From a virus: a stretch of DNA of 64,000 nt. The stretch lies in the UHGV virus genome UHGV-1368192; one strand, written 5' to 3'. The notes beneath the pieces were generated by a model. The model searched no databases, was not told the origin of the DNA, and saw nothing but the letters and a program-made list of their open reading frames with translations. Each line of letters opens with the position of its first letter. Position 1 is the stretch's first letter. Positions 30,711 to 61,373 of the stretch are shown piece by piece. Both the position numbers and the translations under genes were made by a program.

Positions 30711-31492
30711 GATTCTACTATATGGGGTTTAACTGATGATGCCGGTTGAGGAAGAGATGAAGGCATAAGGTCGTAACGTTTCCTATCTAAACGGTAAGGG
30801 TGTATAGAAGCGCTAAGGGTCGGGGAACCTTTCAATGCTTGCTCTGTGGTGGCTACATACGTATAGCCGTTCTCGTTAGTATTGATAACCTGCACGTCAA
30901 TACTCTGCGGTACAAGCTCCTGAGGAATAAGGGCAACAACAATAGCATCCTTTGGCTCCTCCTCAAGCACAGGTACAATGCCTACTTCCTCCTCAAGAGA
31001 GATAGTATTAGCTTCCTCAATGGGATCCACCACGTCACGCATGTAAGCCTGATAAAGCCGTACTCGGTTAACTCTGGACATAAAAATAGGATTAACCCAG
31101 TAACGGCGTATCTGCCGGCGAGCAATTACAGACTTCTCGATCAGCTCACGCAAGCCACGATACACAGAGTTGAGAGCAATACCCTCTTCCTCAGAAATAA
31201 CCTTTGCGTCGAGCACTACACAGTTTTCCTCATCAAGACCCTGTGAGAGCCTCGCAAAGATGATCAGCGCTGATGGGGATAGTCTAGACATTACCTGGAA
31301 TCCCTTAGGGTAGACACGCACGTGCTGTGATGTGTCTACCATCTCTTTCTGTCGGAGAGCTATATCCACATCAGTTATCTCCCCTTCGCCTGTGACGACG
31401 TGGAGATCCTTCTGTGTGGTGTACCTATACCTGTTCTGAAAGTCTGCCTCAAGGGCTAAGTCCATGGCGAATGGACATCTTGGAGTTGCCAT
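30707..31492 (-). CDS. putative winged-helix DNA-binding protein (regulator or replication initiator-like)
   Basis: LSPSALIIFARLSQGL...VYRGLRELIEKSVIARR resembles a winged-helix recognition helix plus wing. Palindromic operators and a TACCTTTG box lie upstream. Confidence 0.4.
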   Translation of the reverse strand: MATPRCPFAMDLALEADFQNRYRYTTQKDLHVVTGEGEITDVDIALRQKEMVDTSQHVRVYPKGFQVMSRLSPSALIIFARLSQGLDEENCVVLDAKVISEEEGIALNSVYRGLRELIEKSVIARRQIRRYWVNPIFMSRVNRVRLYQAYMRDVVDPIEEANTISLEEEVGIVPVLEEEPKDAIVVALIPQELVPQSIDVQVINTNENGYTYVATTEQALKGSPTLSASIHPYRLDRKRYDLMPSSLPQPASSVKPHIVES

Positions 31493-48737: not shown

Positions 48738-49139
48738 TTATATGTTTATACTAGTCAGCATCACATCGTTATATGTGAGTCCGATGATAGCGTTATCGTA
48801 GCCCTCGTCATAGCTATAGAGGTCTAATGGGATAAAGATAGATGGTCCATTATCAGGTGCTATTCTAACACCTATGCCTCCCTGTGGCACAATAGAGTCC
48901 TTGATGTTCTTTAGGTTGAGGTAGAACTTCAAGCCCTTGAGGAAGCGGATATCTTCCTTGATTCCACTAAAGTCAAAGTAGCCATCTTCTCTATCCTCCT
49001 TGATCCCATACAGCTCACCATTCTCGTGTCGCATGTTCAAACCGCGCCCATCTACTGACTCTATGTAGAGGGGGCCAAAGGCTACTTGCTGAGACTTAGG
49101 CAGCTTCTTGAGGAGGCTGTCGTAGTGATCTATTAACAT
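48738..49139 (-). CDS. hypothetical protein (133 aa)
   Basis: ORF only. Confidence 0.5.
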   Translation of the reverse strand: MLIDHYDSLLKKLPKSQQVAFGPLYIESVDGRGLNMRHENGELYGIKEDREDGYFDFSGIKEDIRFLKGLKFYLNLKNIKDSIVPQGGIGVRIAPDNGPSIFIPLDLYSYDEGYDNAIIGLTYNDVMLTSINI

Positions 49140-49188
49140 ATTTCCTGTGGTTTATAAATGAGAATAGCCGACCTCATGGCCGGCTGTG

Positions 49189-49260
49189 TACCCCGAGATG
49201 GAATCGAACCATCATCGTAAGTTTAGGAAACTTATGTTCTATCCGTTGAACTATCGGGGC
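49189..49260 (-). tRNA. tRNA-Arg (anticodon CCT)
   Basis: The minus strand reads GCCCCGA-TA-GTTC-AACGGATA-GAAC-A-TAAGT-TTCCTAA-ACTTA-CGAT-GATGG-TTCGATT-CCATC-TCGGGGT-A. This gives a complete cloverleaf of 72 nt. The GGTTCGATTCC T-arm is present. No CCA is encoded. Confidence 0.8.
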
Positions 49261-49394
49261 TTGTGCGGGCCACCTCCATTATGGCTAAGAGGTAAGCCCG
49301 CGTCGTGTAATCACTCAAATGGAACCAATGCAAAGATAGCGCGTTTAGCGATATGAGCAACACAGGTGCGCCCATCTTTGCTTTTTGAGTGATC

Positions 49395-49787
49395 TTAGTC
49401 TACAAGGATTCTCTGCCCCACGTCTGTGCTGACGTAGGTAGCTGAGTCGACTCGCTCCTCAACGATGCGACCATCATCCTTGCGGACTATGAAGTAGTAT
49501 CGCGTCTCTCTGCGCTCTATACGTTGTTCTAGTTGTTTTGCATCCCAGTTGTACATATACCCTGAGGGCACGAAGGTCTTGTCCATGACCTCAGCGTTTG
49601 ACTCAGGTGTTGTGATGGCTACTATGGTGAACGGTGCGAACAAGGCGATTAGCGCTGATGTAATCATTATTGCTGTGTATTTCTTGTCCTGCTTCACTGT
49701 CGTCAATGTACCCCCGATCATCACAGCACAGGTTATGCAGACGGCTAAGGGCACAAAAATTGATAGGAAAATCAGTAAGTCTCGCAT
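49395..49787 (-). CDS. membrane-anchored protein, paralog of 50993..51292
   Basis: Two N-terminal transmembrane helices. The C-terminus YYFIVRKDDGRIVEERVDSATYVSTDVGQRILVD is shared with the paralog. Confidence 0.5.
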   Translation of the reverse strand: MRDLLIFLSIFVPLAVCITCAVMIGGTLTTVKQDKKYTAIMITSALIALFAPFTIVAITTPESNAEVMDKTFVPSGYMYNWDAKQLEQRIERRETRYYFIVRKDDGRIVEERVDSATYVSTDVGQRILVD

Positions 49788-50350
49788 TGGTCTATATTAT
49801 TAGAACTTGATACTATTTCTAGTCTCAAGTAAAACTTATGGATACATCATCCCCTAGGCAATTTAATAGGTATTGAGGAAAGACATATAAGTAGAAGAAC
49901 ATATTATTCCTTTCCTCATTAAACGCGCGCGCGAGGCGCATTTTCGGGCGAACCCGAACCTAATTAAATTGCGCATAGGGGGATGGCTTCTTAGCCCCAA
50001 GGGTGAGGTACCACTATGGTATCCAATCCTCAACCTCTCGGCTGTCTCTCTTCCTCAGGCAACACGTACCCAATGTCGATTGACACTCTACTCTTTATCT
50101 AATCAGGCCTGAGTAGTAGTATTAGCTCTCTTTAGGTCTGGCCAAACCTAGACGGCGGATCACTTTACCAGCCGGCCACCTATCCGTCAATTTTATATCC
50201 CCTGGGTTACTACCCAAAGCTCCTGGTGGCGTTCATTCTCCCACAGGACGTTCGATGTACACCGTTGAATGGGAGGGGAATCTCCAACTATCCACCGCCC
50301 TTGGGATGCCGTACACTTCTGTACCTCCTAGGCGGCCTCATTGCTGGGCC
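49788..50350 (-). ncRNA. candidate large structured non-coding RNA or long structured leader (ORF-free, GC-elevated)
   Basis: About 560 nt carries no ORF above 60 aa on either strand. It contains many local hairpins, for example TTGAGGAAAG..CCTTTCCTCA at 49873-49918. An exact TACCTTTG box at 50355-50362 points leftward into it. A tRNA lies about 530 nt downstream on the same strand. Confidence 0.3.
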
Positions 50351-50354
50351 ACCA

Positions 50355-50362
50355 CAAAGGTA
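50355..50362 (-). promoter_or_regulatory. Bacteroidetes-type -7 box TACCTTTG directing leftward transcription into the ORF-free region
   Basis: The plus strand reads CAAAGGTA. No coding sequence follows for about 560 nt. Confidence 0.4.
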
Positions 50363-50416
50363 TGAAGAATATCTGGGACTTGAGGAAGAGAGAGTAGGTG
50401 AATCTGGCTGTTAGTC

Positions 50417-50692
50417 TTAAAACATACTCATTACGTCATCTACATACTCCTCCCAGGCGAGTTTATATCCTTCCTCAAGAGTCTTGATGCCGCCCTCCAC
50501 TAGAATGGTCTCTCCGGTGATATCCATCTTGAGGAGGCTATAGATACCCATAGAGCGTTCCATGAGGAAGTCATACCACAGGTTTGTCTCTGCGATCTTA
50601 TCGGCATCATTCGCGCTCATCCACTCTAGTGGCTTGAGGATTTGTGATAGTTGTTCTTTCTTCATAGTTGTTACTTGTTTCAATTCACGCAC
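50417..50692 (-). CDS. small protein, KEQL..PLEW..YVDDV family member 1
   Basis: Shares KEQL-x-PLEW and AW-x-YVDDV blocks with 50739..50996 and more loosely with 55199..55483. Confidence 0.45.
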   Translation of the reverse strand: MRELKQVTTMKKEQLSQILKPLEWMSANDADKIAETNLWYDFLMERSMGIYSLLKMDITGETILVEGGIKTLEEGYKLAWEEYVDDVMSMF

Positions 50693-50738
50693 CCTGGGAA
50701 TGGTGCGACCTGCTTTAGTTGTTCTCTCTTCGTGATTC

Positions 50739-50996
50739 TTACTTGAATAGGTCTAACACGTCATCGACGTAGTCATTCCAGGCTATGGCCTTAGCTTCCT
50801 TCAGCGTTGGAACGTTCCTCTTTATTAGTACTCTTGGCCCATCGCCTGTATCATCGACCATTACTGTATATGCCCCATCAACTTTAGATATTCTATACCA
50901 CCCATTGTGGAAGTCAGTGTATGCCGCTATGTCGCCGAAGCCGGCTCCATTCCACTCCAGCGGCACTAGTTCTTGTTCTAATTGTTCTTTTGTCAT
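50739..50996 (-). CDS. small protein, KEQL..PLEW..YVDDV family member 2
   Basis: Tandem paralog of 50417..50692. Confidence 0.45.
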   Translation of the reverse strand: MTKEQLEQELVPLEWNGAGFGDIAAYTDFHNGWYRISKVDGAYTVMVDDTGDGPRVLIKRNVPTLKEAKAIAWNDYVDDVLDLFK

Positions 50997-51292
50997 TTTA
51001 GTTTATTGATGTTTACTCTGTCTCCTACGTTGGTATCCATGTAGACTATCTTCGCTACTCGCTCTTCTATGACGTGCTTGTCGTCACGTTTGATTGTCAG
51101 GTAGTAGTTGTCTTCTGAGGATATCCATGCGGGCTTGACTGTCTTTTCTATTACAACACCGTTATTTCTCAGGTGCCGATCTTGCTTGTCTAGCCATCCA
51201 GCAAAGAGTAATAATATACCAAAGAATAGTATAAATATGAATCCTGGATTTTCCACCCAGAATGGGGTTTCTGTTTTATTATGTCGTCCCAT
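50993..51292 (-). CDS. membrane-anchored protein, paralog of 49395..49787
   Basis: N-terminal transmembrane helix. Conserved YYLTIKRDDKHVIEERVAKIVYMDTNVGDRV block. Confidence 0.5.
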   Translation of the reverse strand: MGRHNKTETPFWVENPGFIFILFFGILLLFAGWLDKQDRHLRNNGVVIEKTVKPAWISSEDNYYLTIKRDDKHVIEERVAKIVYMDTNVGDRVNINKLK

Positions 51293-60925: not shown

Positions 60926-60933
60926 CAAAGGTA
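60926..60933 (-). promoter_or_regulatory. Bacteroidetes-type -7 box TACCTTTG
   Basis: The plus strand reads CAAAGGTA. It lies 20 nt upstream of the ATG at 60906, at the edge of a 430 nt non-coding stretch. Confidence 0.45.
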
Positions 60934-61340
60934 CCCCCATTCTTTTAGGCCGTAAAGGTCCTAAGGCGTAATGCGCTAAGAATACCTACTGGTTATACTA
61001 TCTTCTCCTCAGGAGCTTTTCCTCAAGCCCCTGTTAGCTTGCTAGCTCATGCTAGCTCTTATATGTGTGTGTTGGTCTTATGGTATAGCGTCCTATGGTA
61101 AAGCGCAGGGTCTGATGTTCATATAGTACGCCGCCTTCCCTATTTCTCTCTTCCTCAGACGACAATGCCACCACCTTACAAATGGCAGGCCGTACAAAGA
61201 GAACGGAAGGTAAGACGTACTATGTGAACACCCCTACTACAATCGGCAGGTGCGAAGCCGGAGTTTCCAACAGCTCCACACGCCGGTCGTATTAACCCTG
61301 TACTCGGCTATAGGCGCGTAGCACTTATAGACCGCTTATA

Positions 61341-61368
61341 CAAAAAAGACCTCCCTAAGGAGGTCTTT
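61341..61368 (-). terminator. rho-independent terminator (minus strand)
   Basis: Read on the minus strand: AGACCTCC ttag GGAGGTCT followed by TTTTTTG. It lies directly downstream of the stop of 61374..61676. Confidence 0.75.
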
Positions 61369-61373
61369 GCGCT

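Follow-up and report, generated by a model that had tools for sequence, protein, structure and literature searches.

In this study we describe a conserved non-coding element in a 64,000-nucleotide (nt) stretch of the virus genome UHGV-1368192, referred to in its whole length as the window, which is part of a Crassvirales (crAss-like) phage genome. The element occupies positions 49790-50397 of the minus strand and is described leftward, its 5' neighbour being a gene of 91 amino acids (aa) with its stop at 50417 and its 3' neighbour a gene of 130 aa with its ATG at 49787. Comparison of related copies makes it very probable that the element is a functional structured RNA of some kind. For the more precise reading, namely a stable RNA that acts in trans during infection, we regard the chances as about even. 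An earlier reading of the same DNA from its letters alone (the sequence-only reading) had proposed a large structured non-coding RNA (ncRNA) that is driven by a host-type promoter and belongs to a co-transcribed unit. This interpretation is supported by the non-coding status of the element, by its conservation and by compensatory changes between its copies.

Conservation of the element

Twenty-five distinct full-length copies of the element (alignment A2) were gathered via a 133-aa neighbour, by DNA patterns and by exact look-ups of proteins distantly related to the 130-aa protein. The pairwise identity among the copies is 87-98%. Compared to 10 relatives from IMG/VR the element is 90-95% identical, while the flanking genes reach 72-82% at the DNA level, and it is still 89.6-93.7% identical where the downstream 130-aa protein has an amino-acid identity of 45-58%. 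The nucleotide diversity of the element is 0.054; for the three codon positions of the 130-aa gene it amounts to 0.46/0.32/0.52 in the N-terminal half and 0.09/0.08/0.22 in the C-terminal half. The element is under much stronger purifying selection than its neighbouring genes, and no stretch measured within the surrounding ~1.3 kb analysed is more strongly conserved. Of the related Crassvirales genomes (~90 kb) in which the position is covered, 12 of 12 contain the element, and all copies share an invariant 20-mer in the central region (GGGTAGTAACCCAGGGGATA).

The borders of the conserved stretch are well defined. In the 25 sequences conservation sets in sharply at 50397, which is 35 nt upstream of a TACCTTTG promoter-like box, and its edge at the ATG (49787) is just as abrupt. 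The sequence-only reading had located the element correctly, with limits (49788-50362) that turn out slightly short, as the conserved element runs from 50397 to the ATG; depending on the 5' end its length is 560-610 nt. The alleles of variable hairpins are distributed as a mosaic among the copies, which points to a long coexistence with recombination.

Coding potential and base composition

Earlier, the region had been described as 560 nt without an open reading frame (ORF) above 60 aa. It does lack a long ORF, but one marginal ORF exceeds the limit: between 50417 and 49787 the longest ORFs comprise 62 aa (50226-50414, plus strand, GTG start) and 56 aa (49863-50033, minus strand, TTG start). 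The frame of the former is shifted by 1-nt indels in most relatives, and the end of the latter is altered by the swap of the variable hairpin. A genetic-code-aware ORF search, which had been named as a possible refutation, found no frame that spans the element when any one of TAG, TGA or TAA is ignored as a stop. With such single-stop read-through the longest stretch between stops (125 codons) lies on the opposite strand and leaves the element. Diversity in the element is 0.055/0.047/0.060 by phase, whereas the adjacent gene has a third-position excess, and single-base indels are frequent (89 one-base gap cells in the alignment). As codon periodicity is absent and indels shift the frames, the element is non-coding.

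An elevated GC content had been named as a further hint. Taken as a whole, 49788-50362 has a GC content of 0.475 and resembles the background (0.486 for the whole window, 0.474 for 30-64 kb); the part from 49920 to 50362 is indeed elevated (0.526). We regard the GC content as a weak argument for an ncRNA.

Predicted fold and compensatory changes

For 629 nt of the minus strand the predicted minimum free energy (MFE) is -219 kcal/mol, compared to -187.7 +/- 5.7 kcal/mol for dinucleotide shuffles (z = -5.5); the plus strand of the same stretch yields z = -4.1. Several hairpins had been noticed from the single sequence, among them the TGAGGAAAG/CTTTCCTCA stem, which is present at 49874-49918. Folding the 25 copies together, as had also been suggested, revealed several helices with compensatory changes. 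The consensus contains 169 pairs, and 99.2% of the 4052 pair cells are canonical. Both partners changed in 37 cells, compared to 9.5 +/- 2.5 in shuffled alignments (0 of 500 as high) and 0-6 when the partners were slid by 1-3 columns; this excess is counted as support and not as proof, because related sequences can exceed a shuffle control without any structure.

The covariance model of the 5' domain (R1) scores 153.8 bits at 50220-50358. Four pairs of helix 7 change on both sides (CG/GC, GC/AU, GC/AU, UA/CG), and its outer and inner alleles occur in three combinations. In helix 8 one U-A pair is inserted or deleted as a unit (A2 columns 140/171), and helix 13 shows one double change. In helix 19 the pair 449/562 alternates between AU and UA and the pair 450/561 occurs as AU, GU and GC. 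The variable hairpin of the 3' domain is replaced as a whole with its pairing kept (UUCGGG-UUCG-CCCGAA versus GCGGG-AUCAAA-CCCGC), and the neighbouring CGCG hairpin shows changes between U-G and C-G. The modules that remain stable between models are the 5' domain, the GGGU-AGUA-ACCC hairpin, the hairpin at 49993-50043, the 3' domain and the terminal hairpin.

A further hint arises from one-sided variants of Watson-Crick consensus pairs. Variants that lead to G-U account for 20 events in 40 cells and variants that lead to A-C for 16 events in 17 cells, the latter being nearly all singletons. The G-U excess among shared variants argues for an RNA of the minus strand and against both a DNA-level element and the opposite strand. 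Unpaired positions are not free to vary either (67 of 253 unpaired columns are variable, versus 62 of 312 paired columns), and the near-invariant unpaired columns suggest tertiary contacts, binding partners or alternative pairings. An all-versus-all search of column pairs for pseudoknots was swamped by chance pairs that tolerate G-U and by lineage-linked alleles; the single clean extra pair (A2 columns 283/331, UA in 4 sequences and GC in 20) is limited to one sub-clade.

Promoter and 5' end

The -7 box on which the proposed host-type promoter was based is present at the given place. The window contains 9 copies of the exact 8-mer TACCTTTG, compared to ~2 expected from length alone, and five of them are intergenic and lie upstream of genes (7457, 31521, 46101, 50355, 60926); three of these five share a similar ATTCTTCnTACCTTTG-like context (ATTCTT). 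The general motif TAnnTTTG is not enriched in the window (27 versus 20.6 expected). Because the exact 8-mer recurs between genes and upstream of them, the box at 50355-50362 is a credible host-type promoter, and the five intergenic copies are probably the host-type promoters of the phage. A -33 TTTG, located ~19-21 nt upstream of the -7 box, was not found in CTCTTCCTCAAGTCCCAGATATTCTTCA; the -33 element is weakly conserved in Bacteroidota.

The segment between the box and the edge of conservation allows two interpretations (Table 1). Its pyrimidine tract CUCUCUCUUCCUCA (50381-50393) is a perfect 13-bp complement of the purine tract UGAGGAAGAGAGA, and with the segment added the consensus energy drops from -285 to -309 kcal/mol. 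The resulting helix 1 (13 bp) shows 3 uncompensated mismatches, 1 G-U and zero covariation, and one must keep in mind that the hexamers TGAGGA and TCCTCA are each ~9-fold over-represented genome-wide (139 and 156 copies). The sequence of the segment is absent from the other TACCTTTG sites. The 5' end of the RNA may lie at ~50348 or at ~50397, and we keep both positions open; read-through from upstream genes would include the segment anyway.

With regard to such motifs, an enrichment of the GAGGAAGAG type was considered as a regulatory repeat and rejected, since it consists mostly of Glu-rich coding sequence and of the abundant TGAGGA and TCCTCA hexamers; pairs of the hairpin type number 17, compared to 10.5 expected from the hexamer counts. 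Intergenic hairpins with the 3' arm CTCYTCCTCAACC were observed 10-35 nt before start codons at 30744, 33279, 38332, 43597 and 55501 (minus strand).

Transcription unit and second RNA element

Downstream of the large RNA the layout is as the sequence-only reading had it: a gene for a membrane protein, then another region of hairpins and a tRNA-Arg. It continues down to a terminator-like hairpin (Table 1). The terminator scan gave no terminator-like site from 50362 to the tRNA and one directly after the tRNA; the terminal hairpin of the large RNA is followed by no U-tract and was not flagged. The hairpin at 49166-49185 is likely the end of the transcription unit, for which the order TACCTTTG box, large RNA, 130-aa gene, second element (ncRNA2), tRNA-Arg(CCU) and terminator is most likely. 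Adjacency to the 130-aa gene and the spacing between the element and the ATG are constant in all 25 copies, and the tRNA sits 530 nt downstream of the large RNA in the same unit.

Table 1. Positions of the predicted features, from right to left in the window
Feature	Position	Strand	Remark
Conserved segment upstream of the TACCTTTG box	50363..50397	-	true RNA 5' end (helix 1) or promoter-upstream element
TACCTTTG box, matches the Bacteroidota -7 box TAnnTTTG	50355..50362	-	invariant in 25 sequences; putative start ~50348
5' domain, closing stem GGUGGC/GCCACC and two branches (helices 4-9)	50220..50358	-	consensus fold
Helix 7 hairpin GGAGGUACA-GAAG-UGUAC..UCC	50304..50328	-	best covarying helix; 100% of cells paired
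Central region with short hairpins and purine tract UGAGGAAGAGAGA (50045-50057)	50044..50219	-	overall fold unsettled
Invariant hairpin GGGU-AGUA-ACCC, inside the central region	50204-50215	-	consensus fold
Helix 17-18 hairpin CCGAGAGGUUGAGGA...UACCUCACCCUUGG	49993..50043	-	consensus fold; one-sided changes G-U compatible except for 3 cells
3' domain, long stem CCAUCCCCCUAUGCGCA.UUUAA / UUAAAU.GCCUAGGGGAUGG closing a three-hairpin junction	49846..49987	-	20-pair stem
3' domain, variable hairpin	49942-49963	-	consensus fold
3' domain, CGCG hairpin	49923-49941	-	consensus fold
3' domain, UGAGGAAAGG/CUUUCCUCA hairpin	49874-49918	-	consensus fold
Terminal hairpin ACUUGAGACUA-GAAA-UAGUAUCAAGU, 17 nt before the ATG	49805..49830	-	consensus fold; C-G to U-G changes
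130-aa membrane-protein gene	49395..49787	-	always directly 3' of the large RNA
ncRNA2, second conserved structured non-coding element, ~134 nt	49261..49394	-	nested hairpins and a 3' hairpin
tRNA-Arg, anticodon CCU	49188..49260	-	ARAGORN and Rfam, 67.6 bits
Terminator-like hairpin AGCCGGCC-AUGA-GGUCGGCU, then AUUCUCAUUU	49166..49185	-	terminator scan; kept in relatives

The second region of nested hairpins proposed earlier was found at 49310-49393 with both of its pairings (ATCACTCAAA/TTTGAGTGAT and GCAAAGAT/ATCTTTGC). Its 3' hairpin (GCGGGCUUACCUC-UUAGCCAUAAUG-GAGGUGGCCCGC) carries two compensatory pairs and ends 5 nt before the tRNA. The diversity of ncRNA2 is 0.069 versus 0.269 for the tRNA, its per-column identity of 0.97-0.99 is like that of the large RNA, and its MFE z-score is -4.75 on the minus and -3.15 on the plus strand; a match in Rfam was not obtained. 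An invariant 8-nt tract of the large RNA (GGCUAAGA) is complementary to an invariant loop of ncRNA2, and a further invariant complementarity of 10 bp with a palindromic core exists between the large RNA and the terminator stem. We also observed a TATCTTTG match within ncRNA2 (49331-49338), which could be a candidate promoter of the tRNA.

The tRNA-Arg itself, which had been recognized as Arg(CCT), occurs in the relatives in three unrelated sequence versions, all with the anticodon CCU (L003/L023, L011, L032 and others). In two loci on one contig a truncated remnant of the window's version stands beside another version, so that the tRNA appears to be swapped as a cassette between the conserved ncRNA2 and the terminator. 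AGG is the commonest Arg codon in 17 long ORFs of the window (305 of 726 Arg codons, 23.8 per 1000), and thus the unit would supply a tRNA that the phage needs. Just past the tRNA, two relatives carry an inserted HNH endonuclease gene (weak HNH_3 match; L029/L030 4626-5225), other relatives have a gene of 165-169 aa at the same spot, and the window has neither.

The 130-aa protein is predicted to possess two N-terminal membrane helices and has a conserved C-terminal domain of ~65 aa; in its AlphaFold model the two membrane helices are the sole confident part and the C-terminal part is of low confidence. All 84 relatives of this protein (45-100% identity) are encoded on ~90-kb Crassvirales contigs.

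Searches for known families and homologues

The sequence-only reading had been unable to assign the region to a known class, in line with the outcome of the Rfam check, which included GOLLD, ROOL and introns and gave no match at E<=10. This cmscan of 49100-50500 with permissive filters reported no RNA family besides tRNA at E<=10, also for four relatives, and at the gathering score tRNA alone was found in the whole window among 4227 families. The Rfam classes without a match comprise GOLLD, ROOL, group I introns (RF00028), group II introns (RF00029 and the D1-D4 models), RNase P RNA, tmRNA, 6S, SRP RNA, T-box, riboswitches and small ribozymes.

The window belongs to an isolated lineage. Identical or near-identical nr entries of its proteins carry the label 'Crassvirales sp.', the contigs of relatives measure 87-93 kb, and the nearest GenBank phages have a helicase identity of just 37%, the best being cr111_1, a Steigviridae. 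Helicase relatives in IMG/VR are either >=85% or <=40% identical. In GenBank phages we obtained no blastn match for 1.4 kb and no tblastn match for the DUF4494 neighbour, and searches anchored on the 130-aa and DUF4494 proteins gave matches within the lineage only. Three exact or near-exact patterns in IMG/VR and one in JGI/ENA metagenomes retrieved the same lineage, chance matches (L016, L040) or nothing. Two 20-mers, one from each element, had no match in the GTDB set of one genome per species of bacteria and archaea. In 1.0 Mb of more distant sequence (helicase-anchored loci of 64 distant Crassvirales contigs from IMG/VR and two cr111_1 stretches) nhmmer found no match at E<=10, and the covariance model of the 5' domain gave only two 13-bit matches at E = 6. 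Across these searches the element is confined to one ~90-kb crAss-like lineage from human-associated metagenomes.

In cr111_1 a 1.8-kb unannotated gap between divergent gene blocks lies near a tRNA-Arg (MT774387.1 80244-82081; L049 4245-6082); its sequence is unrelated to the large RNA, and it was dismissed as a homologue. An ncRNA associated with a reverse transcriptase (retron, DRT or DGR template) was dismissed since no reverse-transcriptase gene is adjacent: Pfam gave no such domain in 20 neighbouring proteins, and the genes within ~4 kb are all <270 aa.

Comparison with known large RNAs

ROOL (rumen-originating, ornate, large; RF03087) is an RNA of ~580 nt that is borne by phages and prophages, typically near tRNA genes. 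Its assembly into a multimeric cage has reportedly been demonstrated by cryo-EM. The large RNA resembles ROOL in its similar size, its many helices, its phage location, a nearby tRNA and the lack of a known function (for ROOL see PMC5737381, PMC12286853). It differs in that no similarity of sequence or structure is detectable, with no match at E<=10. The element moreover belongs to a Bacteroidota-type phage, whereas ROOL occurs mostly in Firmicutes and the rumen, and within its unit it is joined to a protein gene and to another structured element.

GOLLD (RF01998) is an ornate RNA of ~800 nt from phages and prophages that often adjoins or embraces tRNA genes and is expressed in the lytic cycle. 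Being large, of phage origin and near a tRNA, the element is comparable to GOLLD (for GOLLD see PMC12286853). The covariance model of GOLLD gave no match, and taxa and architecture differ.

For ncRNA2 the closest analogy is provided by two stable RNAs from the tRNA gene cluster of phage T4, C and D (also called species 1 and 2), which are ~120-140 nt long, are co-transcribed with tRNAs and cut from the same precursor, and have no known function. Here too a structured RNA stands directly before a tRNA, and it might mature via tRNA processing. A sequence relation does not exist, the large RNA is several times longer than RNAs C and D, and its tRNA is separated from it by a protein gene.

A resemblance to T-boxes, which are 200-300 nt long and found in Gram-positive bacteria, was suggested by the loop of helix 22. 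It contains AGG with flanks and is complementary over 16 nt to the anticodon arm of the window's own tRNA. Unlike in a T-box, this complementarity is not kept, being lost when the tRNA or the loop changes, and Rfam gave no hit. T-box-like sensing of the tRNA was therefore rejected, as loop alleles and the three tRNA versions assort independently. Judged by these comparisons, the large RNA is not a member of the GOLLD, ROOL or T4 C/D families; it constitutes a new family of RNA, although its general kind is known.

Proposed role and alternative explanations

We propose that transcription of the unit runs leftward and that the host RNA polymerase most likely initiates it at the TACCTTTG box; the folded RNA itself would be the functional product. 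Endonucleases, including those of tRNA processing, could release it from the precursor, and it would then act in trans, as is supposed for GOLLD and ROOL, two phage RNAs linked to tRNAs. From comparative sequence evidence the element is a candidate for a stable, discrete RNA with roughly equal odds for and against.

Several points weigh against this proposal, in addition to the limit of the shuffle control given above. All 25 copies are 87-98% identical, most helices are invariant and the covariation derives from ~6-8 events; its support is thin because the family is shallow. The distribution is narrow, with no remote homologues found by nhmmer or the covariance model in the 1.0 Mb searched. 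The conserved block and the 13-bp complementarity begin upstream of the putative promoter, which leaves the 5' end ambiguous. The central 175 nt adopt another predicted fold once the 44 nt preceding the promoter box are omitted, and because of this dependence the fold of the central region is unsettled. Finally, the RNA is always joined to the downstream gene at a fixed spacing, on account of which a role in cis and a role in trans are inseparable.

This last point leads to the alternative that survives best, although we consider it rather unlikely: a giant cis-acting leader in the 5' untranslated region. It would remain part of the message and act on how the 130-aa gene is translated and on the stability or processing of gene transcript and tRNA. 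Such a leader might work by alternative pairings, for which two UGAGGAAG-type and two CUUCCUCA-type tracts are available in the RNA, or by contacts with ncRNA2 that loop out the coding region, as the complementarity of GGCUAAGA to the ncRNA2 loop would permit. The fixed distance to the ATG in 25 copies, the conservation right up to the start codon and the absence of a terminator between RNA and gene fit well with this idea. On the other hand, near-total invariance over ~600 nt, including unpaired positions, goes far beyond known bacterial leaders. The N-terminal half of the gene evolves freely (0.3-0.5) while its supposed regulator is frozen, the proposed alternative and long-range pairings show zero covariation, and the one testable idea, tRNA sensing, failed.

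More improbable is the remnant of a ribozyme or selfish RNA, such as an ORF-less intron or a mobile RNA, in which case the high identity would result from recent spread. Crassvirales carry many group I introns (PMC7886860), the identity of the element exceeds that of its flanks, the mosaic of hairpin alleles indicates frequent recombination, and two relatives have the HNH gene inserted close to the tRNA. Models of group I/II introns and small ribozymes gave no match at E<=10, and there are no exons to join, because the two flanks are complete, separate genes and the upstream neighbour differs between genomes; the latter ends at a stop of its own, and the downstream gene has its own ATG and homologues over its full length. 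The element holds one fixed position per genome, with no second copy in the window and none in the other phages and bacterial genomes searched. Had the element swept or been transferred recently, the edges would not lie only a few bases from the ATG in each of the lineages.

We give still less credence to an element that acts as DNA, that is, a cluster of promoters or operators, an origin of replication or a site of recombination close to the replication genes. Its position ~4 kb upstream of the helicase/primase block, the extension of conservation upstream of the putative transcription start and the TAnnTTTG matches within the region and ncRNA2 would be in agreement with it. Against it, the compensatory changes, the paired indel and the hairpin swap preserve pairing and not sequence, and the shared variants are of the G-U type, whose neutrality is limited to RNA of the gene strand. 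Neither iterons nor direct repeats were found, the cumulative GC skew does not turn here, and 600 near-invariant bp are far more than such sites need. A small or recoded protein missed by the standard ORF search, which the frequent reassignment of stop codons in Crassvirales (PMC7886860) and the two short ORFs might suggest, can practically be dismissed, given that no frame opens with any stop read through, the frames are disrupted in relatives, the third-position excess of the adjacent gene is missing and the sole tRNA is Arg(CCU) and not a suppressor.

Returning to the trans-acting RNA, a more far-reaching version of it appears doubtful to us: a new class of large ornate RNA, the first for Crassvirales, whose near-invariant unpaired nucleotides would stem from an intricate tertiary or quaternary architecture or from a core that catalyses a reaction or binds a ligand. 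If true, this RNA would work with ncRNA2 and the tRNA-Arg(CCU); it might, for instance, protect, mature or deliver this tRNA, on which the AGG-rich genes of the phage depend, or be a decoy for host defence that targets RNA.

Large (>500 nt) highly conserved ncRNAs are rare in bacteria and phages, and the known classes GOLLD, ROOL, OLE and raiA have unexpected architectures and jobs that are unknown. Crass-like phages are the most abundant viruses of the human gut. We searched the crAss/Crassvirales ncRNA literature and found no description of such an RNA, nor was a structured RNA gene of these phages found described in Rfam; a large survey of structured RNAs in IMG/VR gives motifs of 29-151 nt only. 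The element would offer another, independent case in which to study the retention of large folded RNAs beside tRNAs in phages, here tied to a tRNA that reads the commonest Arg codon among the long ORFs counted. The family is limited to one narrow lineage without a cultured member, which makes genetics hard. The size of the element is suited to in vitro transcription, structure probing and cryo-EM.

Further observations in the window

The window contains very large ORFs (2602, 2623, 1583 and 1376 aa) and, on the minus strand, a replication block with an SNF2-type helicase, a DnaB-like helicase and a primase. Just upstream of the large RNA (50417-50996) lie tandem small paralogous genes (85-104 aa, motif KPLEW ... 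EEAKAIAW.DYV), for which no family match was found; the array has two copies in the window and four in one relative (L001, 766-1836). The 99-aa gene further upstream (50993-51292) is paralogous to the 130-aa protein in the C-terminal domain of the latter (27% identity), with weak DUF7489 matches for each of the two proteins and no structured RNA in front of it.

A second ORF-free stretch was observed at 60940-61373 (minus strand). It contains a strong terminator-like hairpin, followed by a long irregular hairpin of ~300 nt, and has an MFE z-score of -8.85. Among 7 relatives its diversity is 0.03-0.26 and it is no more conserved than the flanking genes. CUGAGGAAGAGAGA lies within it (61146-61157), and a TACCTTTG box comes after it (60926-60933).

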